A stretch of DNA of 64,000 bases from Bacillota bacterium (GTDB lineage Bacteria > Bacillota > DULZ01). Positions 33,190-57,265 of the stretch are shown here, piece after piece; the stretch's first letter is position 1, and each line of letters opens with the position of its first letter. Below the pieces are notes generated by a model, which saw only the letters and a list, made by a program, of their open reading frames with translations, was not told the DNA's origin and ran no database searches. The stretch lies in contig JBMNIZ010000015.1 of assembly GCA_050951405.1 (NCBI GenBank), positions 163,536 to 227,535 of the forward strand. Direction: 5' to 3'. Position numbers and translations under genes: made by a program.

Positions 33190-33399
33190 AGCTTTTTACC
33201 GTATAATAATCCAGCCTAGCCGGCTGATGAATTTCCGCCAAAATCCAGTCCGCCACCCGAATTGAAAGCATGGCCTAGTAATTTCTAGAAAAATAGGTCT
33301 AAGAACTGTCAGATAAGGCGAGAAGGGCATATTTGTCCCTTGACATAAAAAAATAAGGCATGCTAAACTAATTAGCATAAATTAATTGAAAAAATCATA

Positions 33400-33550
33400 T
33401 GCAGGCCGAAGTCTCTTCATGAGCGCGGGGGAACCAACAACAAAAGGGGCGAATTTCCAGTTGCCATACTGCCATACTGGGATAGGGCTTACCCGGGTCC
33501 GAGCCCGTCAGCTAACCTCGTAGGCTTTAGCGGGCATAGCTGTTAAAGGC
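33400..33550 (+). ncRNA. c-di-AMP riboswitch (ydaO/kimA class) in the opuA leader
   Basis: The conserved segments GGGGAACCAA, GGGGCGAAUUUCC, CCGGGUCCGAGCCCGUCAGCUAACCUCGUAGGC match my recollection of the ydaO consensus (GGGGAGCCA...CCGAAUCCGUCAGCUAACCUCGUAAGC). It lies upstream of an osmolyte ABC importer, the typical regulon. Confidence 0.6.
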
Positions 33551-43128: not shown

Positions 43129-44670
43129 ATGAAAAACAAATTCATCTTTTTATTGCTTGTCGTCATGTTACTCGTTCCCGCCAGCACAAGCGCTGGCTTC
43201 CAGCCAAAAGTGAAGCTGGGCAATGAAGTCCTGCTGAGCAAGTATCGCCATCTGGTGGAAGGGAAAAAAGTGGGTCTGGTAACGAACCAAACCGGCATTG
43301 ACAGCCGAGGAAAAAGCCTGGTGGATATTTTGGCCCAAGATCCGGCCATTAATCTGGTCTCTCTCTACAGCCCGGAACACGGCCTTGACGGTCAGGCCAA
43401 AGCCGGCGAATATGTGGAATCCTACACCCACCGTGAACTGGGTATACCAGTTTACAGCCTCTATGGAGCAAGCAGAATGCCCACGGAAAAAATGCTGTCA
43501 GGGATTGATGTTCTCCTCTTCGATATTCAAGACATCGGAGCTCGTTCCTACACCTACATGTCCACTTTGAACTACTGCCTGGTGGCCTGTCAGAAATACG
43601 GCAAACCTCTCATCGTCCTGGACCGGCCCAACCCCCTGGGGGGTATCATCGTGGAAGGTCCGGTGCTGGAGGATCCCTTCATTTCTTTTGTGGGGGTGGA
43701 TAACTTACCCATGGCTCACGGCATGACTGCCGGAGAGCTGGCCCTTTTTTTCAACAGGAAAATCGGAGCCGACTTGAAAGTGATACCTATGGAAGGATAT
43801 CACCGGGAAATGATCTTCCAGGATACAGGTCTCCCCTGGGTACCAACCTCTCCCAATATTCCTGACCTGGATTCCGCCTTTGGTTATATGGCTACCGGGC
43901 TGGGAGAAGGAACCGGCATTTACCAAGCCGACAAGTTCAAATGGATTGGCGGCAAAGGAATCGACTCCCAAAAATTTGCCGATCTTTTAAATAATGCAGG
44001 ACTCCCCGGGGTTCGCTTTATCCCGGAAGCTCAGGGACAAGCAGGAGGAGCCCGCCTCCAAATCACCGATTACCACAGCTTCAATCCGGCAAAAACAGGC
44101 CTCTATGCCCTCTGTTACGCCCATTCCCTGACCAATTTCAAAGTGCCCAAAAGCGGCAGCACCATCGTCATGTTCGACAAAATCATGGGTACGGATAAGA
44201 TCGGCCAATATTTGGAGCAAGGTCTTTCCCCACAAGAGATAGAAGCCAAATATAAACCGGCCCTGAATCGCTTTAAAGAAGAAAGGAAAAAATATTTACT
44301 TTACAGCACCAAAGGCTCATCCGGCATTTCCGTTGTTGTCCAGGGAAAGACCGTGGAGTTCGATGTGCCGCCCTATCTGGATCAGAACAACCGTTTACAA
44401 GTACCCATCCGGGCCATCGCCCAAGCCCTGGGCGGGGAAGTCTACTGGCAGCAGGAACAGCGGACAATCACTATTATTCGCGGTGAGGATATTCTTCTTT
44501 TCCGCATCGATGATCCCAAAGTTATGGTCAACGGCCTGGAAAAAACCATGGACACTGTTCCCATCCTCAAAAACAACCGAACCCTGATTCCCGTGCGCTA
44601 CGTGGGAGAATATCTCCATGCCCTTGTTCACTGGGATCAGGCTCAGCAAACGGTATTCATCTATCAATAA
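43129..44670 (+). CDS. DUF1343 (NamZ-like exo-muramidase family) protein with a C-terminal copper-amine-oxidase N-terminal-like domain
   Basis: Start MKNKFIFLLL with a GGAGGAAAGGAG RBS and a signal peptide. The DUF1343 core and the C-terminal stalk domain are both present. Confidence 0.75.
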   Translation: MKNKFIFLLLVVMLLVPASTSAGFQPKVKLGNEVLLSKYRHLVEGKKVGLVTNQTGIDSRGKSLVDILAQDPAINLVSLYSPEHGLDGQAKAGEYVESYTHRELGIPVYSLYGASRMPTEKMLSGIDVLLFDIQDIGARSYTYMSTLNYCLVACQKYGKPLIVLDRPNPLGGIIVEGPVLEDPFISFVGVDNLPMAHGMTAGELALFFNRKIGADLKVIPMEGYHREMIFQDTGLPWVPTSPNIPDLDSAFGYMATGLGEGTGIYQADKFKWIGGKGIDSQKFADLLNNAGLPGVRFIPEAQGQAGGARLQITDYHSFNPAKTGLYALCYAHSLTNFKVPKSGSTIVMFDKIMGTDKIGQYLEQGLSPQEIEAKYKPALNRFKEERKKYLLYSTKGSSGISVVVQGKTVEFDVPPYLDQNNRLQVPIRAIAQALGGEVYWQQEQRTITIIRGEDILLFRIDDPKVMVNGLEKTMDTVPILKNNRTLIPVRYVGEYLHALVHWDQAQQTVFIYQ

Positions 44671-44799
44671 TTAAAAAATAAAAGGTTTTTTACCTTTTGA
44701 TCCAGAAGAGTATTATAACGAAGACCCTTAGCAAGATAAACTGACTATTCAGTGATAATTTTCCCTTGAATAAGTTACGGATAAGTTGAGGGGAAACAA

Positions 44800-46006
44800 A
44801 TGAGCACTTTCAGACTGCGAATTGAATTTGAAGACCGGACCAAAATGGTCCTGGACACCAGCAAAGCCATTGCTAAATATGATTTAAACATTACCGCACT
44901 GGAAGTCCTACCTAACCTGATGTATTTTGAACTGCAGCACAATAACGGGGACGACCAGGTCAAGCAGAAATTGATCCTGGACCTGGCCTCCATCCCCAAT
45001 ATCCTCAAAGTGGAAGAAGTAAAATACAGTCCCCATTTGATAGATAATGATAATGCCTTTTCTTCATTGATCGGCGAAAGTGAAGGCCTGCGCAAGGCTG
45101 TTTTCCAGGCGAAACTCGTGGCCAAAAGCTCCTGTACGGTGCTGATCCAGGGGGAAAGCGGAACCGGGAAGGATCTTTTAGCCAAAGCCATTCATCTGGC
45201 CAGCGAGAGGGGGGACCAAACCCTTTTATCCCATCAACTGTGCAGCCTTTCCGGAAAGCCTTTTGGAAAGCGAGCTCTTCGGTTATGAAGAAGGCACTTT
45301 TAGCGGTGCCCTCAAAGGAGGCAAGGCCGGACTTTTTGAAGTGGCCAGCGGCAGTACTCTTTTCCTGGATGAAGTAGGAGATCTTTCTTTAAACACTCAG
45401 GCCAAACTTCTCCGGGTACTCCAAGAGAAAAAGATCCGCCGCATCGGAGGTTATAAAGAAAAAGAGGTTGATGTACGCATCATCGCTGCCACCAACCGGA
45501 ATCTCCTGCAAATGGTCCAAAAGGGAGAATTCCGCCACGACCTTTACTATCGCTTAAACGTGGTCCCCATTGAAATTCCGGCTTTGCGGCACCGCCGGGC
45601 CGATATTCCGCTCCTGGCCGAATACTTTTTGGCTAAATATGCCCAGCGCACTTCCACCATTCCCAAAACCCTCACAGCCAGGGCCTTAGCCTACTTGATC
45701 AATTATGACTGGCCTGGCAACGTGCGGGAACTGGAAAATATGATCGAAAGGGCCATCAACCTGACGCCTGGCCTGATCATCGACATCGAGAGTTTGCACT
45801 TTGAAAAAGAAAATTACATTTCTTTACTCCCAGATGAAGGAAAACCTCTCAAAACCCTGGTCAGGGCTTACGAAGGACGTCTCATCGATGAAGCCGTAAA
45901 AAAACACGGATCCATCAGAAAAGCAGCCAAGGCTCTGGGCCTCTCCCATACAGGTCTCCTGAAAAAGTTAAAAAATTTGCAAAAACAAGTTCCCAGAGAT
46001 TCCTGA
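44800..46006 (+). pseudogene. Sigma-54-dependent transcriptional activator (ACT-like N-terminal domain, AAA+ and HTH), frameshifted at about 45225
   Basis: ORF 44800..45288 carries [18 protein letters not shown] 45263..46006 carries [15 protein letters not shown]...GNVRELEN. The correct frame is restored by a 1-nt change in an aggggggac G-run. Confidence 0.7.
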
Positions 46007-46090
46007 ATGGCAACAATAGTTACCAATGGAATATAAAGTTACCATCAAAAGGCGCTTTTTCAGCATGACTGGTAAGAATAGTTACCAGTC
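46007..46090. promoter_or_regulatory. Three palindromic enhancer-like sites (TGGYAAC-N4-6-GTTACCA); the best is ACTGGTAA-GAATAG-TTACCAGT
   Basis: Read directly from the sequence at 70-170 bp upstream of the sigma-54 promoter. Confidence 0.4.
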
Positions 46091-46160
46091 ATTCTTTTTC
46101 CAAGGGCCTTTTTCTTTGCCCGGTCTGCCTTAGAGGCGCTTTTTCACATCTTCCAGCGGC

Positions 46161-46176
46161 TGGCATGAATATTGCA
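46161..46176 (+). promoter_or_regulatory. Sigma-54 (-24/-12) promoter TGGCATGAATATTGCA
   Basis: GG-N10-GC spacing with TGGCAT and TTGCA, about 50 bp upstream of pntAA. Confidence 0.6.
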
Positions 46177-46228
46177 TGCTTAATAGTATTAACTAACATT
46201 AACACCAAAAATAAGGAGGCCTCTCATC

Positions 46229-47413
46229 ATGACCGCGCAAAAATTTTCTGGTTTGACCATCGGTATTCCGAAAGAAATTATGGAAGGGGAGAGAAGAGTG
46301 GCAGGCACCCCGGAAACCGTGAAGAAATTCGTCGCTTCCGGGGCAAAAGTAATTGTGGAAAGCGGAGCCGGTGCCGGTGCCTTCTTTTCCGACGAGGCTT
46401 ACCAAGAAGCCGGAGCTTCCATTGCTGCTGACGGAGAAGAAGTTTTTGCCAAAGCCGATATTATCATCAAAGTAAAAGAGCCTCTTTTTAACCCTGCCAA
46501 AAACAAGCACGAAGTGAAAATGATGCGGCCCGGGCAAATCCTGGTCACTTTCCTCCATCCGGCTGCACCGGCAAACCATGACATGGTGAAAGAGCTGGCT
46601 GCCCAAGGAGTTATCAGCCTGACCCTGGACGGGATCCCTCGTATTTCCAGGGCCCAGAGTATGGACGCCCTGACCTCCATGAGTACCATCGCCGGTTATA
46701 AGGGAGTCTTAATGGCCGCCAATCGTCTGTCTAAATTTCTGCCCATGGTGGGGACCGCGGTAGGCATGATTCAACCGGCCAACGTTTTAGTCATAGGCAC
46801 CGGGGTAGCCGGACTCCAGGCCGTGGCTACGGCCAAAAGGCTGGGGGCTGTGGTCTACGCTGCGGATATCCGCCCTGATGCCCAAGAGCAGGCCCAAAGC
46901 CTGGGCGCTAAAATCATCGATACAGGTGTACCGGCGGAAATTGCCGTGGGCGAAGGGGGCTATGCCAAAAGGCTGCCAGAAGAATGGCTCATCAAGGAAC
47001 GGGAAGCATTGAAAGAAATCGTGGCTAAAGCTGATATCATCATTTTGACCGCCCTGGTTCCCGGTCGCAAAGCTCCCATTCTCATCACGGAAGAAATGGT
47101 CCGTTCCATGAAGCCCGGATCGGTCATTATCGATATCGCCATCGACCAGGGAGGCAACTGCGCCCTGACCGTGGGAGGGAAAATAACGGAACAGTTCGGC
47201 GTGAGTATCGACGGCACGAAAAATATCCCGGGGATGGTGCCTACCAGCTCCACCTGGATGTTTGCCCACAATGTTTACAATTTTGTGGCCAATTTGGTCC
47301 AGGATGGCAAAGTCAACCTTAACCTGGAAGATGAAATTATCGCTTCTTCCCTGGTCACCAAAGACGGAAAGATCGTCCATTCCGGAGCCCTGGAGGCTAT
47401 GGGACAAAATTAG
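46229..47413 (+). CDS. pntAA: NAD(P) transhydrogenase alpha subunit part 1 (dI, alanine-dehydrogenase-like)
   Basis: 394 aa with AlaDH/PNT N-terminal and C-terminal domains and the NAD-binding motif VIGTGVAGL. Confidence 0.9.
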   Translation: MTAQKFSGLTIGIPKEIMEGERRVAGTPETVKKFVASGAKVIVESGAGAGAFFSDEAYQEAGASIAADGEEVFAKADIIIKVKEPLFNPAKNKHEVKMMRPGQILVTFLHPAAPANHDMVKELAAQGVISLTLDGIPRISRAQSMDALTSMSTIAGYKGVLMAANRLSKFLPMVGTAVGMIQPANVLVIGTGVAGLQAVATAKRLGAVVYAADIRPDAQEQAQSLGAKIIDTGVPAEIAVGEGGYAKRLPEEWLIKEREALKEIVAKADIIILTALVPGRKAPILITEEMVRSMKPGSVIIDIAIDQGGNCALTVGGKITEQFGVSIDGTKNIPGMVPTSSTWMFAHNVYNFVANLVQDGKVNLNLEDEIIASSLVTKDGKIVHSGALEAMGQN

Positions 47414-47429
47414 AATAAGGAGAAAGATT

Positions 47430-47705
47430 ATGAATACCGGTATGCTTCTTTTGGTTTTTATCGTTTCAACTGTTGTGGGTTACAAGCTGATTCACGAGGT
47501 GCCCTCCCTCCTCCATACTCCCTTGATGTCGGGCATGAACGCTCTTTCCGGGGTCACTATCCTGGGCTCCTTGGTGGCCACTGCGGCAGCAGTTCTCCTA
47601 GGCAGCCGCCTGCTGGGCAGTCTGGCAGTTATCCTGGCCACCATCAACCTGGTGGGAGGCTTTGTGGTTACTGACCGGATGTTGAAGATGTTCAAGGCCA
47701 ATTGA
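47430..47705 (+). CDS. pntAB: NAD(P) transhydrogenase alpha subunit part 2 (membrane)
   Basis: Start MNTGMLLL with an AAGGAGAAAG RBS. About 91 aa with 3 TM helices. Confidence 0.8.
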   Translation: MNTGMLLLVFIVSTVVGYKLIHEVPSLLHTPLMSGMNALSGVTILGSLVATAAAVLLGSRLLGSLAVILATINLVGGFVVTDRMLKMFKAN

Positions 47706-47709
47706 AGAG

Positions 47710-50196
47710 GTGAAAACTTTGCTGCATAGTTCAACCTATTTGTTTGTCTCCTTGATTATCGCCATCACTGTTCTCTACGGCATCAAACTGATGAGCTCAC
47801 CCCGGACAGCGGTACGAGGGAATCTTCTTGGTGCTCTGAGCATGTTTGTCGCTGTGATGCTGGTCCTATATTATAATCAGATCCTCAGCACCGGACTGCT
47901 CTGGATTTCCATGGCCATCGGCGCCTCTATCGGTTACTGGATGGCCATGAAGGTGGCCATGATCCAAATGCCCCAGATGGTAGCTCTCCTCAACGGGCTG
48001 GGAGGAGGAGCCTCCATGTTGGTAGCCCTGGTGGTTATTTTTGAAAGCTACACCCAGCTTAACCTCTTTAACCGGGCTTCCGGCCAGCTGGCCCTGATCG
48101 TAGGGGGCTTAACCTTGAGCGGCAGCATCGTGGCCGCCGGCAAGCTCCACCGTCTTTTCAATCAAAAACCCATTATTCTGCGAAGCCATAGTTTAATCAT
48201 CAGTATTGTGCTCACATCCATGGGTCTTTTGGCTATTCTGGCCACCTGGTATCCTGCCGGCACTCCCTTTGTTTTGTCAGTTTTGGTCACTCTCCTCAGT
48301 TTATTTTTCGGAGTGCTTTTCACCCTGCGGGTGGGCGGAGCGGATATGCCGGTCACCATTTCTCTTTTGAATTCTTTTTCCGGTTTGGCCGGAGCCATCT
48401 GCGGTTTCGCCATCAATGACCCGCTGCTGGTAGCTATCGGCGCCATCGTGGGAGCTGCCGGATTAATTCTTACCCAGATCATGTGCCGGGCCATGCACCG
48501 CTCTCTGGCTGAAATCCTCACCGGCAGGACTGTCCTGAACCAGGTATCCCCGCAAAAAAGAGAGGCGCTGGATCCATCCTCCCTGGAAAAAGAAGCAGAG
48601 GAAAGCACCGAAGAAAAAACCGCCCGGTTCTTAAAAGAAGCGGAAAAAGTCATCATCGTACCCGGCTACGGAATGGCCTTAGCACAAGCCCAGACAGAGG
48701 TGAAAAGGCTTTTCGATCTCCTGGAAGCCCAAGGAAAAGATGTGAAGTTCGCCATCCATCCCGTGGCAGGACGGATGCCGGGACATATGAACGTGCTGTT
48801 GGCGGAAGTGGATGTCCCTTACGATAAACTCTTTGAAATGGACGCCATCAACCATGAATTCAAGGAAACCGATGTGGCCATAGTGGTCGGTGCTTGCGAC
48901 GTGGTCAATCCCGCCGCCATCAGCGCTGAAGGAACTCCCATCTACGGCATGCCCATCCTCCGGGTGGATGAGGCTAAGCATGTCATCGTCTGCAATCTGG
49001 ATACCAAGCCCGGCTACTCAGGAGTGGACAATCCTCTCTATGAGCAGCCCCAGGTAACCCTGCTTCTGGGAGATGCCGCCCAAACCATCCGCCAGCTGGC
49101 AGATGACCTGGTACAGGAGGAACAGCTTCCTGGGCAGGATCTTCCCGCGGAAAAAACCCATGTGGAATTCCTGAAAGAAGCGGAAAAAGTCATCATCGTA
49201 CCCGGCTACGGAATGGCCTTAGCACAAGCCCAGACAGAGGTGAAAAGGCTTTTCGATCTCCTGGAAGCCCAAGGAAAAGATGTGAAGTTCGCCATCCATC
49301 CCGTGGCAGGACGGATGCCGGGACATATGAACGTGCTGTTGGCGGAAGTGGATGTCCCTTACGATAAACTCTTTGAAATGGACGCCATCAACCATGAATT
49401 CAAGGAAACCGATGTGGCCATAGTGGTCGGTGCTTGCGACGTGGTCAATCCCGCCGCCATCAGCGCTGAAGGAACTCCCATCTACGGCATGCCCATCCTC
49501 CGGGTGGATGAGGCTAAGCATGTCATCGTCTGCAATCTGGATACCAAGCCCGGCTACTCAGGAGTGGACAATCCTCTCTATGAGCAGCCCCAGGTAACCC
49601 TGCTTCTGGGAGATGCCGCCCAAACCATCCGCCAGCTGGCAGATGACCTGGTACAGGAGGAACAGCTTCCTGGGCAGGATCTTCCCGCGGAAAAAACCCA
49701 TGTGGAATTCCTGAAAGAAGCGGAAAAAGTCATCATCGTACCCGGCTACGGAATGGCCTTAGCACAAGCCCAGACAGAGGTGAAAAGGCTTTTCGATCTC
49801 CTGGAAGCCCAAGGAAAAGATGTGAAGTTCGCCATCCATCCCGTGGCAGGACGGATGCCGGGACATATGAACGTGCTGTTGGCGGAAGTGGATGTCCCTT
49901 ACGATAAACTCTTTGAAATGGACGCCATCAACCATGAATTCAAGGAAACCGATGTGGCCATAGTGGTCGGTGCTTGCGACGTGGTCAATCCCGCCGCCAT
50001 CAGCGCTGAAGGAACTCCCATCTACGGCATGCCCATCCTCCGGGTGGATGAGGCTAAGCATGTCATCGTCTGCAATCTGGATACCAAGCCCGGCTACTCA
50101 GGAGTGGACAATCCTCTCTATGAGCAGCCCCAGGTAACCCTGCTTCTGGGAGATGCCGCCCGGACCGTAGCAGATCTTTCATCTTCTCTGGCCTGA
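47710..50196 (+). CDS. pntB: NAD(P) transhydrogenase beta subunit carrying three tandem dIII (NADP(H)-binding) domains (828 aa)
   Basis: GTG start overlapping the pntAB stop. A dII membrane domain of about 300 aa is followed by three copies of the roughly 150-aa dIII domain, joined by a 29-aa linker. The reading frame is continuous. Confidence 0.8.
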   Translation: MKTLLHSSTYLFVSLIIAITVLYGIKLMSSPRTAVRGNLLGALSMFVAVMLVLYYNQILSTGLLWISMAIGASIGYWMAMKVAMIQMPQMVALLNGLGGGASMLVALVVIFESYTQLNLFNRASGQLALIVGGLTLSGSIVAAGKLHRLFNQKPIILRSHSLIISIVLTSMGLLAILATWYPAGTPFVLSVLVTLLSLFFGVLFTLRVGGADMPVTISLLNSFSGLAGAICGFAINDPLLVAIGAIVGAAGLILTQIMCRAMHRSLAEILTGRTVLNQVSPQKREALDPSSLEKEAEESTEEKTARFLKEAEKVIIVPGYGMALAQAQTEVKRLFDLLEAQGKDVKFAIHPVAGRMPGHMNVLLAEVDVPYDKLFEMDAINHEFKETDVAIVVGACDVVNPAAISAEGTPIYGMPILRVDEAKHVIVCNLDTKPGYSGVDNPLYEQPQVTLLLGDAAQTIRQLADDLVQEEQLPGQDLPAEKTHVEFLKEAEKVIIVPGYGMALAQAQTEVKRLFDLLEAQGKDVKFAIHPVAGRMPGHMNVLLAEVDVPYDKLFEMDAINHEFKETDVAIVVGACDVVNPAAISAEGTPIYGMPILRVDEAKHVIVCNLDTKPGYSGVDNPLYEQPQVTLLLGDAAQTIRQLADDLVQEEQLPGQDLPAEKTHVEFLKEAEKVIIVPGYGMALAQAQTEVKRLFDLLEAQGKDVKFAIHPVAGRMPGHMNVLLAEVDVPYDKLFEMDAINHEFKETDVAIVVGACDVVNPAAISAEGTPIYGMPILRVDEAKHVIVCNLDTKPGYSGVDNPLYEQPQVTLLLGDAARTVADLSSSLA
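48633..50160. repeat. Perfect tandem repeat: 540-bp unit, about 2.8 copies (units start at 48641, 49181, 49721)
   Basis: Lines 48641..49180 and 49181..49720 are identical. The third copy is identical up to 50160, then diverges into the native C-terminus. Confidence 0.95.
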
Positions 50197-50227
50197 TCTA
50201 CGGGCAGCGCCCGGAAACTTTTTCGGG

Positions 50228-50268
50228 GAGGATCCGGTTTTCCTCAGGGGATCCTCCCTTTCTCATCT
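50228..50268 (+). terminator. Intrinsic terminator after pntB (GGGGAGGATCC...GGGATCCTCCC + T-rich)
   Basis: 10-bp inverted repeat followed by TTTCTCATCTG. Confidence 0.5.
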
Positions 50269-50417
50269 GTCCACCAAAGTTTCTTCCCCCTCCTTTCTCC
50301 CTTATCAATCCCCTTTCGAAGGCCGGAAATCAGCAGGATTTATCAGCTTCCCGGGCGAAATAGCAAGCAGGATTAATGATCCATAGAATAGCACACAATA
50401 TGAGGGAGGTGATCATC

Positions 50418-51080
50418 ATGATGTATTTTCAAAACCGTCAGCAGGCAGGCAAAGAATTGCTGCCTAAAATCAAAGCCCTTCTCAACCCTGGCGAAGAATG
50501 CATCATCCTGGCCATCCCCCGAGGGGGCGTAGAAGTGGCAGAGCCTCTGGCCGCCGGCTTGCCGGCTCCATTGGACGTAATCATCCCCCGTAAACTGGGC
50601 GCACCCAATGATCCTGAATTGGCAGTAGGGGCTATCACCCCTGACGGTACTCTACTTTGGAATGACCGGCTCATGACAAGACTGTGTTTAAACTCTGAAA
50701 AAATGCAACCGGTGGTGAAAAAGGCCCTGGAAGAGCTGGAGCAGAGGACAAAAATGTACCGCCGGGAGAGGCCTTTTCCCCGCCTCCAGGGGAAAACGGT
50801 CATTGTGGTGGACGATGGGATTGCCACCGGTTTTACGGTTGAGGCTGCCCTGAAATCCATCAAAAAACAACAAGCCGACCGGGTGATCCTAGGCGTTCCG
50901 GTGGGGCCGGCAGCCACCATCGAAAGGTTTAACGCCATGCTGGAAACCGTCTGCTTGTGCGCACCCGAAGAGTTTTACGCTGTAGGCGAGTTTTACCGGG
51001 ATTTCTCTCCCACCAGCCACGAAAGGGTAATCCAGATCTTGGAACGCTATTCCCCCGATGATGAAAGTAAAAGTAATTGA
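50418..51080 (+). CDS. Phosphoribosyltransferase-domain protein (type I PRTase fold)
   Basis: PRPP-binding motif VIVVDDGIATGFT. Start MMYFQN with a GGGAGGTGA RBS. Confidence 0.7.
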   Translation: MMYFQNRQQAGKELLPKIKALLNPGEECIILAIPRGGVEVAEPLAAGLPAPLDVIIPRKLGAPNDPELAVGAITPDGTLLWNDRLMTRLCLNSEKMQPVVKKALEELEQRTKMYRRERPFPRLQGKTVIVVDDGIATGFTVEAALKSIKKQQADRVILGVPVGPAATIERFNAMLETVCLCAPEEFYAVGEFYRDFSPTSHERVIQILERYSPDDESKSN

Positions 51081-51237
51081 AACAAGGAGCTCGCAGCTTT
51101 CAGCCTCATCTGAAAACAGCGCCGGGCGATAATACCAAAGGCTGATGCTTTGCTGCCCCTGCCGTACCGCCTTGTTTTTCCATTGGTTCAGCAAGAAAAA
51201 AACCGGCTTTTTCCGCCGATTTCTTGACTGCTTCGAT

Positions 51238-52005
51238 TCATAGGATCAGCAGAGACCGGTTGCAGCGGCACTGCTCCTGCGATAAATGGCTGTGGGTGAT
51301 AATGTCCAGAAAGAGTCTTGTCAACTTGGGCTTGTTCCTTTCCACCGCCTCCAGAATTTCCTCCGTGGTCATCTCTTTGGACATACCTGTGCAAAAATTG
51401 GAAATAATGCCCACCCCCGCATAGCAGATGCCCAGTTCCCTGGCCAAAACCACTTCCGGTACACCGGTCATGCCCACCACATGGGCTCCCAACTGCCGAT
51501 ACATGCGGATCTCCGCCGCCGTTTCAAAACGAGGTCCTTCGGTGCAGCAGTAAACAGCTTCGCCGGCAAAGGAAAGACCATGAGCAGGGGCTTTTTCCTG
51601 AAGCAGCTTTCTCAGTACAGGGCAATAAGGCTCGCTAACATCCAAGTGCACCACCTGATCTCCCCCGTCATAAAAAGTTAGAGGGCGGGCTTTGGTAAAA
51701 TCAAGAAAATCTTGAAAAATAACCAGTTCTCCCGGCCACCAGTGGGGATGAGCGGAACCCACCGCATTAGTGGCAAAAATATGAGTGACGGCCAATTCCT
51801 TTAAAGCCCAGAGATTAGCCCGGAAATTGATTTTGTGGGGAGGAGTGGCATGGCCCCTGCCGTGCCTGGGCAAGAAGACAACCTCTCTGTCACCGGCTTT
51901 CTGCACGCTCACTTCCACGCCGCCATAAGGCGTATCGACTCTTTCCCGCCTTTGCTCCCCTTCAAGACCATAGATACCGGTTCCCCCGATAATGGCGGCC
52001 CTCAT
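51238..52005 (-). CDS. mtnP: S-methyl-5'-thioadenosine phosphorylase
   Basis: Start MRAAIIGGTGIYG. PNP/MTAP-family motifs are present. Confidence 0.8.
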   Translation of the reverse strand: MRAAIIGGTGIYGLEGEQRRERVDTPYGGVEVSVQKAGDREVVFLPRHGRGHATPPHKINFRANLWALKELAVTHIFATNAVGSAHPHWWPGELVIFQDFLDFTKARPLTFYDGGDQVVHLDVSEPYCPVLRKLLQEKAPAHGLSFAGEAVYCCTEGPRFETAAEIRMYRQLGAHVVGMTGVPEVVLARELGICYAGVGIISNFCTGMSKEMTTEEILEAVERNKPKLTRLFLDIITHSHLSQEQCRCNRSLLIL

Positions 52006-52055
52006 TTTCCCCCTCCTGTCATACCTCATTCCAACATCATTGCTTCATCGTACTC

Positions 52056-53264
52056 TTACATATTCTCCAGCCGGCTGGCCACTTCTTTCAGAAAATCTTC
52101 GGTATTGACGATGGTTTTCTTTTCCGTTTCCGCCAGTAAAGCCAGATCCTTCGTCATCACTCCCTCTTCAATAGTCTGCAAAGAAGCCTTTTCCAGCCGG
52201 TCAGCAAAATCCATCAAGGCTTGGACACCGTCCAATTCTCCCCTCTTTCTCAGGGCTCCCGTCCAAGCAAAAATTGTGGCTATAGAGTTGGTGGAAGTCT
52301 CTTCACCCTTCAAATGCCGGTAATAATGACGGGTCACCGTACCATGAGCCGCCTCATACTCAAAATGGCCTTCAGGCGAAACCAACACGGAAGTCATCAT
52401 GGCCAGGCTGCCGAAAGAAGCCGCCACCAAATCGGACATCACATCCCCGTCATAGTTCTTGCAGGCCCAAATCATCCCTCCTTCCGAGCGGATAACCCGG
52501 GCCACCGCATCATCAATTAAAGTATAGAAATATTCCAGGTTGGCTGCTTGAAAACGCCCCTGAAATTCTTCTTCATAGACCTGCTGAAAAATATCCATAA
52601 AGGAATGGTCATAAATCTTGGAAATGGTATCCTTAGTGGCAAACCACAAATCCTGCTTGGTACTCAAAGCATATTGAAAGCAGGAACGGGCAAAACTCCT
52701 AATGGAACTGTCCAGATTATGCATGCCCAAGATGACTCCCGGCCCGGTGAACTGGTAGATTTTTTGCCTGACCGTCTTGCCCTGCTCTGAAGTAAAAACC
52801 AATTCCGCCGTGCCGGGCCCATCTACCCGGTACTCCACATCCTTGTAAACATCACCGTAGGCATGCCGGGCGATGGTAATGGGCTTCCGCCAATTTTTCA
52901 CCAGGGGCTTGATATTCTTGACCACAATGGGTGTGCGAAAAACCGTTCCATCCAAAATAGCCCTGATGGTGCCGTTGGGGCTTTTCCACATTTGTTTTAA
53001 ATTATATTCCTTCATCCGCTGGGCATTGGGGGTGATAGTGGCGCATTTTACCGCTACACCCAGCCTTTTTGTAGCCAGAGCCGCATCCACCGTAATTCGG
53101 TCCTCGGTAGCGTCCCGCTGCGGTAAACTCAGGTCGTAGTATTCGGTCTTCAGCTCTATGTAGGGCTCCAGGAGTATTTCCTTGATCTTTTGCCAGATAA
53201 TCCTGGTCATTTCATCCCCATCCATCTCCACTAAAGGAATCTGCATCTTGATTTTTTCGGCCAT
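52056..53264 (-). CDS. icd: NADP-dependent isocitrate dehydrogenase, subfamily II (eukaryotic-type homodimeric)
   Basis: 402 aa, alignable end-to-end with human IDH1 (VEMDGDEMTRIIW, MWKSPNGTIR, IWACKNYDGDV). Confidence 0.9.
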   Translation of the reverse strand: MAEKIKMQIPLVEMDGDEMTRIIWQKIKEILLEPYIELKTEYYDLSLPQRDATEDRITVDAALATKRLGVAVKCATITPNAQRMKEYNLKQMWKSPNGTIRAILDGTVFRTPIVVKNIKPLVKNWRKPITIARHAYGDVYKDVEYRVDGPGTAELVFTSEQGKTVRQKIYQFTGPGVILGMHNLDSSIRSFARSCFQYALSTKQDLWFATKDTISKIYDHSFMDIFQQVYEEEFQGRFQAANLEYFYTLIDDAVARVIRSEGGMIWACKNYDGDVMSDLVAASFGSLAMMTSVLVSPEGHFEYEAAHGTVTRHYYRHLKGEETSTNSIATIFAWTGALRKRGELDGVQALMDFADRLEKASLQTIEEGVMTKDLALLAETEKKTIVNTEDFLKEVASRLENM

Positions 53265-53407
53265 AGCCTCGTCTCCTTCCCGCTGTCTGAAATTGATTAA
53301 CGTCTTCTATAGTTTAGCATAAAAAATAGAGCCAACCAAGCCCGCCCTCGGGATCCAAAAAACGCCTCCCAAGAAACCCGGACCTAAAAATAAGCAACCA
53401 TTAAAAA

Positions 53408-53445
53408 AGACCGCCAACGAATTGGTCAGTTGGCGGGCATCCTGG
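53408..53445 (-). terminator. Intrinsic terminator after the MCP gene (GCCCGCCAAC-loop-GTTGGCGG + UUUUUU)
   Basis: Hairpin plus a U-run on the minus-strand RNA. Confidence 0.45.
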
Positions 53446-53457
53446 TCAAACGATCAT

Positions 53458-54650
53458 TTACTCAACTTTTAACAAATTGCCGCATGAGCTAAGGAGGCTC
53501 TCGCTGGTAAATTTGATATTATTGACAGCTTCAGCGATATGGGCAATGGCCGCTTTTTCTTCCCGGGATAGTGAATGCTATGTTTTCAACGTCCTCCTTG
53601 CTCAACTGGATCTCCTGGGACAAATCCTTCAGGGAAGGCACTATCTCTTCCACCACCTTTTGGATACTTCTCGACGTGGGACTTGATCTTGTCCACAGAA
53701 GCCTGGCTTTCGTTGGCCAGCTTCCTCACTTCCTGAGCCACCACACCAAATCCCCGGCCTTGATCCCCGGCCCGGGCCGCTTCAATAGCTGCATTTAATG
53801 CCAGCAAATTGGTTTGGCTGGAAATATTTCTAATGGTGTCTACCACATTCCCGATGTTAGCCGTTGCTTGGAACAGTACATTGGATATATCCACAATGGA
53901 GGCGACTTTTGTAGTATCTTCGATCATTTTCTGTGCTGACCAGATCAACTGTGCTGGAAGTGGTTTCAATAGAAGCATTGACCTCTTCTATGGCTGCCAC
54001 TATTTGCTCAATTTGATCATTGAGATGTTGGGAGATTTCCCTGGTTTCGCTGGCAAAATGCTCGTAATTCACCTGATAAACAGCCTTCATCAATGCCTTT
54101 GTACTCTCAAAAGTTGCTACTCTGTTTGCTGGTATGATAGTCACGTCTTTTGGCAAGTAAGAGGCATACTTGTTCATCAAATGTCCGCCGGGCCCCACAA
54201 TGGTATCTGCCCCGATAATGTATTTTGCCGTGGAAAGACTCTCAATCACCTGCTGCTGGGGTATCTCATTGTACGGCACGACTATGTAATTAACATGATC
54301 TACGTTATTCTCCCGGCAGTACTCTACAATTTTTTGCCCCTGGGCCGTATTATTGTTGAAAACAATGACATCCTCATTTGCTGGAATCTTCGCAATGGCC
54401 ACATAGAACAGATGCATCCGGAACAAGTTCCAAGGTAACTATTTTTTCCTGGGGTATTTTCTGTGCGGCCTCCGCAACCCTGGTAGGTAGAGCAGCAAAT
54501 AAATCGGCGATGGAATGGTCTGGAACGGATTTAAGCGCCATGGCACTGGAGATAATCTCATGAGGGAAACATTTCCCTAACAACAACTAACAGCTCTTGA
54601 GCCACAGTTTCTGTACTACCAACAGTAACCAGCCTGATTTTCCCTTCCAT
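53458..54650 (-). pseudogene. Cytoplasmic methyl-accepting chemotaxis protein with an unusual N-terminal sensor domain, broken by about five frameshifts
   Basis: Fragments in successive frames: MEGKIRLVTVGSTETVAQELLVVV / KCFPHEIISSAMALK... / HLFYVAIAKIPANEDVIVFNN...TIVGPGGHLMNKYASYL...[12 protein letters not shown] / [14 protein letters not shown]...[33 protein letters not shown] / [14 protein letters not shown]... / EKAAIAHIAEAVNNIKFTSESLL. Confidence 0.6.
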
Positions 54651-56911: not shown

Positions 56912-57265
56912 TGGGGGCGTACTGGTTTCGACGGGGGATGGTATTGGCGAAAGTAGCCAGGCGGGGTTCCATCAGCCCGTAATACGGTGGATCTAAATTA
57001 AACGCCAAAGAAAATTACGCTTTAGCTGCTTAGTTAGCGGCTAACCTTCTACCTACTGCTCCCGCGGTGTAGGATAGAGGGGCGACAGAGCGGGATACTC
57101 CGGATAGACCGATCGCTATATCCGGGGGAAAAAGAAGCGATCTAGCGGAAAACCTCTCCTGTCCTTGGGAGAAGTTTTTGGCGAAACCCTAAACAAGGAC
57201 TATCCTGGTAGAAGCTTTCGTGGGTACTCCTTCGGACGGGGGTTCGATTCCCCCCGCCTCCACCA
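56912..57265 (+). ncRNA. ssrA: tmRNA (ssrA); tag reading frame ...AKENYALAA-stop
   Basis: 5' end GGGGGCGUACUGGUUUCGACGGGGGAUGG. 3' tRNA-like end GGACGGGGGUUCGAUUCCCCCCGCCUCCACCA. Internal ORF GCC AAA GAA AAT TAC GCT TTA GCT GCT TAG. Confidence 0.9.

Follow-up and report, generated by a model that had tools for sequence, protein, structure and literature searches.

Transhydrogenases of several subunit types have been solved, and all share one dIII domain per chain. The three-subunit enzyme of Thermus thermophilus (PntAA, PntAB, and PntB; PDB 4O9U, 4O9P, and 4J16) consists of a soluble dI subunit, a small subunit with four transmembrane helices (4TM), and a beta subunit of 450 amino acids (aa) that joins the membrane domain dII to one dIII domain. 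In Escherichia coli PntAB and mitochondrial NNT (two-subunit and single-chain types; PDB 9L76, 6QTI, 1D4O, 1DJL, and 2BRU), dI is covalently linked to the membrane part, and each solved structure has one dIII per protomer. The accepted mechanism assumes one dIII per dII, with the two dIII heads of the dimer alternating between face-down and face-up positions. In characterized enzymes, dIII exchanges nucleotide only when face-down on dII and transfers hydride only when face-up on the dI dimer, (dI)2; one dIII at a time engages (dI)2, which in three-subunit enzymes has no covalent tie to the membrane part (PMC13635403). Here, we describe a transhydrogenase locus whose pntB gene encodes three dIII domains. 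It lies in a 64,000-nucleotide (nt) stretch of DNA from a Bacillota bacterium (assembly GCA_050951405.1, contig JBMNIZ010000015.1, positions 163,536 to 227,535 of the forward strand), hereafter called the window.

We hold it to be highly probable, at roughly 85%, that this gene encodes a genuine multi-dIII beta subunit of a three-subunit proton-translocating transhydrogenase and that it belongs to a widespread multi-dIII group. The evidence comes from the structure of the gene and its predicted product, from database relatives, and from independent assemblies of the same locus.

The pnt operon and a PntB with three dIII domains

The operon has the same parts as that of T. thermophilus. Coordinates below are those of the window, and features lie on the + strand unless marked otherwise. 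The first gene, pntAA (46229 to 47413), encodes dI, the soluble subunit that binds NAD(H) (394 aa; matches to Pfam AlaDh_PNT_N and AlaDh_PNT_C with E values of 1e-48 to 1e-65). The second, pntAB (47430 to 47705), encodes the small four-helix membrane subunit (91 aa; Pfam PNTB_4TM, E = 1e-30) and was also called at the equivalent position in L081, a JGI contig of the same region considered below. Both genes stand directly upstream of pntB (47710 to 50196) on the same strand, which places the locus in the three-subunit (PntAA, PntAB, and PntB) type.

The pntB gene is an uninterrupted open reading frame (ORF) of 828 aa that encodes dII and three dIII domains. Its product matches the Pfam PNTB profile (PF02233) in three stretches with an E value of 0 and a whole-protein score of 1,082 bits (cutoff, 31.7); residues 13 to 464 correspond to profile positions 4 to 454 of 456, and the two further stretches are partial. 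Among solved chains, T. thermophilus PntB (4o9u_B) comes nearest and aligned to residues 15 to 465 (E = 1e-100). The dII domain (47710 to 48537; aa 1 to 276) aligns to 4o9u_B residues 9 to 267 and has nine predicted helices. Queried with a single unit, phmmer placed the dIII units at aa 308 to 459, 488 to 639, and 668 to 819. The dIII core motifs PGYGMA, HPVAGRMPGHMNVLLAE, DVVNPAA, and PxYGMP are common to the window and T. thermophilus proteins, and the window protein also shares the dI/dII/dIII logic and the dIII fold family of E. coli PntAB and NNT. In number of heads the proteins part company: all 16 solved transhydrogenase sequences have a single dIII, whereas the window PntB has three.

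An AlphaFold2 model built on a 41-sequence alignment had a mean predicted local distance difference test score (pLDDT) of 84. It contains nine long helices at residues 2 to 261, mostly with pLDDT above 90, matching the nine transmembrane helices of dII, and three dIII domains of the same secondary structure. Scores fell below 50 at aa 277 to 298, 470 to 481, and 650 to 661. The product is therefore predicted to be one nine-helix dII followed by three dIII domains on disordered linkers, like beads on a string; the linking segments between heads are ∼30 aa long with a disordered center.

The first-pass annotation of this DNA had proposed a perfect in-frame 540-bp repeat inside pntB that yields three complete dIII domains, and the uninterrupted ORF and base-by-base offset comparison bear it out. 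(Tandem Repeats Finder, limited to periods of at most 500 nt, is blind to a 540-nt unit.) At an offset of 540, 988 nt are identical (48634 to 49621 and 49174 to 50161), and at an offset of 1,080, 448 nt are identical (48634 to 49081 and 49714 to 50161). Chance is excluded as the source of a 988-nt exact self-match, and a repeat search of the window returned the same 540-nt spacing. The exact tandem repeat thus runs from 48634 to 50161 (1,528 nt, or 2.83 units of 540 nt). The boundaries first given (48641 to 49180 equal to 49181 to 49720, with the third copy ending at 50160) fall inside it, the true edges lying 7 nt and 1 nt further out. The array is made up of three exact 448-nt dIII cores (48634 to 49081, 49174 to 49621, and 49714 to 50161) and two identical 92-nt linker segments, here called J (49082 to 49173 and 49622 to 49713). 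It is preceded by a segment (48538 to 48633; aa 277 to 308) comprising the native dII-dIII linker with the unique beginning of the first dIII; this segment is unlike the inter-repeat linker in sequence and includes the first of the low-pLDDT stretches. It is followed by the native C-terminal tail RTVADLSSSLA and the stop codon (50162 to 50196). This tail, a diverged counterpart of the first part of J, is modeled as the C-terminal helix of unit 3.

J encodes a peptide of 30 aa, QTIRQLADDLVQEEQLPGQDLPAEKTHVEF, where 29 had been counted before. It spans the end of the dIII C-terminal helix, ∼12 disordered residues, and the start of the next N-terminal helix, and the structural unit is slightly longer than the exact DNA repeat. 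The N-terminal helix reads …EEKTARF-LKEAEKV in unit 1 versus …AEKTHVEF-LKEAEKV in the internal units, and the C-terminal helix reads RTVADLSSSLA in unit 3 versus QTIRQLADDLVQEE in its internal counterpart. The earlier observation that the junction merely resembles the native flanks was correct: comparison with the native tail and the native dII-dIII linker revealed no exact native flank sequence within J, and although FLKEAEKV is kept in the protein, its Leu is encoded by TTA ahead of unit 1 and by CTG within J. Similarity of J to the two flanks at the DNA level is local and weak (for the tail and the linker, 18 and 38 of 500 shuffles, respectively, reach the observed score), so the homology of its ends to the native flanks is argued from protein sequence and structural position rather than from DNA. 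J also contains GAATTC, an EcoRI site encoding E-F; an engineered construct is ruled out by the identical J in environmental contigs from other data sets.

The architecture had been called unprecedented, a claim that comparison with databases overturns. All 120 best homologs are multi-dIII proteins, with cultured species among their sources: four units are present in 113, five in 6, and three in 2, the two three-unit entries being the window protein itself, stored twice. The layout of one dII followed by tandem dIII domains with variable spacers matches in 119 other proteins. Named sources are Porphyromonas bennonis, Porphyromonas cangingivalis, Porphyromonas uenonis, Porphyromonas circumdentaria, Desulfovibrio intestinalis, Dysgonomonas massiliensis, and an Anaerococcus sp.; others are metagenome-assembled genomes (MAGs) of Bacillota, Eubacteriales, and Bacteroidales. 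Two-unit forms occur in MAGs of Desulfobacterales, Coriobacteriia, and Bacillota (L002, L003, L006, and L010), and a second full-length three-unit protein (P0126) has 845 aa. An identical 1,003-aa four-unit P. cangingivalis protein is present on three contigs, and the two of these that were read belong to different genome assemblies. When the search was clustered at 50%, about 21 representatives among the best 150 had at least two stretches, many entries being fragments, and a scan of genome contigs returned mostly single-dIII relatives. In all six loci examined, the operon order is pntAA-pntAB-pntB.

Four of these relatives, from P. cangingivalis (P0073), D. intestinalis (P0086), D. massiliensis (P0088), and a Bacillota MAG (P0016), illustrate the group. 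They have the same layout of one dII and tandem dIII domains, and database multi-dIII proteins share with the window protein the operon, an N-x-D motif discussed below, and 52 to 65% identity. Their spacers are nonconserved and ∼25 to 37 aa long, and they carry four (rarely five) units where the window protein carries three. We place the window PntB in a large natural group whose members carry two to five heads (most often four) and occur in anaerobic Bacteroidota, Desulfovibrionaceae, Bacillota, and others; three is an unusual number where four is the rule. Databases annotate these proteins as plain PntB, "NAD(P)(+) transhydrogenase (Re/Si-specific) subunit beta," and the full-text literature searched yielded no account of a transhydrogenase that carries multiple dIII domains. 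The architecture is thus common in databases and apparently undescribed in papers. Because repeats break short-read assemblies, multi-dIII PntB proteins are probably undercounted and often truncated in MAGs.

The N-x-D motif and possible roles of the heads

In E. coli PntAB, the residues K424-R425-S426 that open loop E (the KRS motif) belong to the NADPH site, and loop E contributes to specificity toward NADP(H) rather than NAD(H) (PMC9529548). Alignment to T. thermophilus (KRG) and Rhodospirillum rubrum (KRS) places N-L-D at this position in all three dIII units of the window PntB (48994 to 49002, aa 429 to 431, in unit 1; 49534 to 49542 and 50074 to 50082 in units 2 and 3). All solved dIII structures have KRS or KRG, and none has N-x-D. 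In a motif census of the proteins collected here, N-x-D was present in 507 of 511 dIII units of multi-dIII proteins, while the 115 single-dIII relatives comprised 68 with K-R-x and 44 with N-x-D. The motif is therefore a trait of a subfamily and is not specific to the repeat, and the multi-head architecture is almost confined to that subfamily. No nucleotide-binding study of the N-x-D subfamily was found in the literature searched.

How several heads might serve one dII can be conjectured by analogy with the characterized enzymes. Judging from their identity, all three heads would be catalytically competent; since they are identical, no head in the window PntB is specialized by sequence. On their ∼30-aa linkers, the heads could take turns in the face-down position on the single dII, where nucleotide exchange would be coupled to proton movement, and in the face-up position on the free (dI)2 dimer, where hydride transfer would occur. 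Tethering would raise the local concentration of loaded heads and may help to hold (dI)2 on the complex, an aid that would matter because (dI)2 is not covalently attached in three-subunit enzymes. Turn taking and tethering are offered as a hypothesis for the role of the extra heads.

An isolated dIII that is off dII holds NADP(H) very tightly. The additional heads might be real but noncatalytic (NADP(H) stores or sensors, regulatory decoys for dI, or decaying domains), a view that we consider unlikely as a whole. In its favor, a single dIII engages (dI)2 at any one time (PMC13635403), and in relatives the last unit is often the most divergent. Decay, however, is excluded by the between-unit comparisons in the four relatives introduced above (P0016, P0073, P0086, and P0088). 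Their units are 78 to 93% identical in DNA, with between-unit synonymous divergence (dS) of 0.32 to 1.19 and ratios of nonsynonymous to synonymous divergence (dN/dS) of 0.01 to 0.18, so each unit is under purifying selection; units 2 and 3 of Dysgonomonas are identical in protein and 93% identical in DNA. (The window cores have zero differences among copies, and dN/dS was hence measured in relatives alone.) The dIII core motifs are, moreover, invariant in all units, and the identity of the window heads leaves none of them specialized by sequence. Distal heads may nonetheless act as stores, sensors, or decoys.

A bolder proposal, which we advance tentatively and regard as doubtful on present evidence, is that multi-dIII N-x-D PntB proteins form a mechanistically distinct transhydrogenase class in anaerobes, in which several equivalent, flexibly tethered hydride-carrier heads share a single proton channel and work with a free (dI)2. 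Were it true, the kinetics, the H+/hydride coupling, or the regulation of the enzyme would be altered; with KRS lost, a different dinucleotide might perhaps be bound; and perfect-repeat arrays would make head number rapidly variable by recombination.

The bookkeeping of one dIII per dII is challenged by a natural group whose chains carry three to five conserved heads, and the group offers a direct test of it, as head number could be related to rate, to coupling ratio, and to retention of the free dI dimer. The group is present in cultured anaerobes of clinical and environmental relevance (Porphyromonas, Desulfovibrio, and Dysgonomonas), which makes experiments feasible.

Copy number and history of the array

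The window protein is found on a second long contig and, in part, on short-read contigs from other data sets, which supports the earlier judgment that the repeat is not a trivial duplication or misassembly. An identical 828-aa protein (P0121), recorded with V first for its GTG start, is encoded on a 297,768-nt JGI contig, and the same protein with its start called four codons later (P0002; NCBI MGI6553612.1, "MAG: Bacillota bacterium") is on a 234,639-nt contig. The JGI contig Ga0534105_00390 (L081) equals the window over 43709 to 53568 save two 1-nt G homopolymer indels and carries the same three exact dIII copies.

Junctions of the repeat appear in three short-read contigs. One, the MAG contig JAAZEG010000297.1 (L082; GCA_012512425.1), is 99.9% identical to the window and stops at window position 48760, exactly 127 nt into the first core. 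Another, L090 (JGI 3300061563), begins at 49495, exactly 127 nt before the second copy of J, and continues in the order core end, J, full core, native C terminus, and downstream genes, with 1 mismatch in 2,786 nt and none across the repeat; its J is 100% identical to that of the window. The third, L091 (JGI 3300062814), starts within the repeat, 119 nt short of its end. Breaks at the length of one k-mer (127, 127, and 119 nt) are the behavior of de Bruijn assemblers at true repeats and thus support a true repeat here. Because L090 has J between two cores, at least two dIII copies are certain. Since related data may underlie both long contigs, the short-read contigs are the stronger evidence.

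The exact number is a separate matter. The true tandem number could be other than three, such as four or two, or the population could be mixed with one consensus reported. A repeat of 100% identity cannot be counted by short reads, whose contigs break there; four copies are present in 113 of the 120 homologs, and among the top matches only this protein has three; homopolymer indels, at least one of them at 45209, are typical of error-prone long reads; and the long contigs may share source data, since a second protein, P0016, connects that NCBI MAG series with JGI sample 3300053716. Set against these considerations, two separately built long contigs (234,639 and 297,768 nt) both give three copies, the 1.5-kb array is far below typical long-read size and so would have been read directly, and P0126 provides another full-length protein with three copies. 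We regard a miscount as quite unlikely. Three dIII copies in the window organism are likely, as indicated by the two long contigs alone and by an array that is short relative to long reads. The odd gene of the window is thus real, with a caveat on its exact copy number.

Multi-dIII arrays appear to turn over by exchange among their units. Within most multi-dIII proteins the units are 85 to 100% identical, versus ∼55 to 65% between proteins. In the Bacillota group nearest the window protein (P0125, P0079, P0016, and P0113; 64 to 65% identity), first and last units pair across species, and the four-unit state is therefore ancestral in that group. While the units of P0016, P0073, P0086, and P0088 have diverged in DNA, those of the window are identical, and so are those of a second, unrelated case of full homogenization: the four-unit pntB of a Porphyromonas sp. 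MAG (GCA_030532005.1; L093, 2886 to 4959; P0083) contains a 100% exact array of 534 nt × 3.88. Two ENA metagenome proteins, P0003 with five units and P0095 with four, are one internal unit apart, and their other units are 98 to 100% identical; the difference is either copy-number polymorphism or assembly collapse. From these sequences, the group seems to have undergone repeated homogenization and copy-number change, as expected from recombination between long direct repeats.

The dII domains give a rough outline of descent. The window dII is closest to those of four-copy Bacillota proteins (57 to 60%). In a neighbor-joining tree without support values, single-dIII proteins of the KRS type are basal and N-x-D proteins form a large clade, in which a derived subclade holds most of the proteins with at least three units; P0152, which has a single dIII, stands just as near to the window dII.

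For the window, the first-pass annotation had favored an evolved multi-dIII architecture that was homogenized or reamplified recently, and this fits a J not built from the present flanks together with copies that do not differ at all. J lacks any exact native sequence, its Leu codon is CTG rather than TTA, and its halves are only distantly similar to the flanks, so the multicopy state predates homogenization. We infer that unequal crossing-over or gene conversion homogenized the cores very recently, in a lineage where the multicopy state is old, as the linker and the outer edges of the array have diverged from one another. Such exchange should make head number variable, and three may be one step from the usual four. 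Recent recombination in an old array best explains both the perfect identity and the number three.

Had an ordinary pntB with one dIII been amplified de novo very recently, as a transient event and with no evolved multidomain function, there would likewise be no differences among the three cores or between the two linkers. A further point for this reading is that P0152, a single-dIII protein, is one of the nearest relatives by dII. A fresh duplication, however, would leave a junction of exact native sequence, and J has none: the Leu codons differ, and the halves of J bear a distant resemblance to the native tail and linker. The unit boundaries, moreover, give complete domains with N- and C-terminal helices and a disordered spacer, as in four-copy relatives. 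J without exact native sequence and with weak DNA similarity to the flanks rules out a fresh duplication of a single-dIII gene, and we consider de novo amplification in general very unlikely. A pure artifact, with misassembly or a chimeric join having multiplied the one dIII of the real gene, is scarcely credible even though exact repeats are a known cause of assembly errors, given that J, a unique sequence, is flanked on both sides by core in an independent short-read contig from another metagenome (L090), that contigs of three other data sets end exactly one k-mer into the repeat, that the frame is preserved, and that multi-dIII proteins are the rule among the closest relatives, isolate genomes included.

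Several points nevertheless weigh against our reading of pntB as a genuine multi-dIII transhydrogenase subunit. With KRS replaced by N-L-D in each head, nucleotide specificity is only presumed. The exact count of three comes from two long contigs whose source samples are probably identical or closely related, and the prevailing dIII number in the group is, by a wide margin, four. Distal heads might never reach dII, staying locked with bound nucleotide. The dII phylogeny is a neighbor-joining tree without support values, and the clustering of units within proteins could reflect independent amplifications in some lineages rather than gene conversion. No experiment on any multi-dIII or N-x-D PntB was found in the literature searched.

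Promoter region and other features of the window

The operon may be under sigma-54 control, as had been proposed earlier. A gene for a sigma-54 enhancer-binding activator (44800 to 46006; ORFs 44800 to 45288 and 45263 to 46006; Pfam Sigma54_activat, AAA_lid_14, and HTH_50) adjoins a −24/−12 promoter-like site, TGGCATGAATATTGCA (46161 to 46176), which lies 53 nt upstream of pntAA. This site is the only TGGCA-N6-TTGCW match in the 64-kb window. As ∼0.5 matches are expected by chance, the argument for it is its position and not the count. Inverted motifs of the TGGTAA...TTACCA type (46020 to 46095), upstream of TGGCATGAATATTGCA, could be activator sites. No sigma-54 activator was found upstream of the pnt operon among the multi-dIII relatives examined.

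One extra G at 45209, in a run of G residues, splits the activator gene of the window; in L081 and L082 the gene is intact and encodes 401 aa. Because the extra G is absent from both, it is probably a homopolymer sequencing error, and it points to an error-prone long-read assembly as the source of the window. The window and L081 differ by a single G a second time at 50353, in the intergenic region after pntB. There, L090 agrees with the window, so L081 may be the contig in error.

Past the collinear 9.8 kb, which holds just these two 1-nt differences, the window and L081 diverge at 53569 to 54198 by 64 substitutions and 3 indels in ∼630 nt. The stretch falls in a methyl-accepting chemotaxis protein gene in L081 and represents a segment that is recombined or hypervariable, or else a mixture of strains. 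Elsewhere in the window, Rfam searches at the gathering threshold identified a transfer-messenger RNA (tmRNA; 56913 to 57265), a c-di-AMP riboswitch (33394 to 33541), and a SECIS_4 selenocysteine insertion element (273 to 310, − strand). Between 20001 and 26000 the G+C content is 0.55 to 0.60, versus ∼0.47 to 0.53 in the rest of the window.

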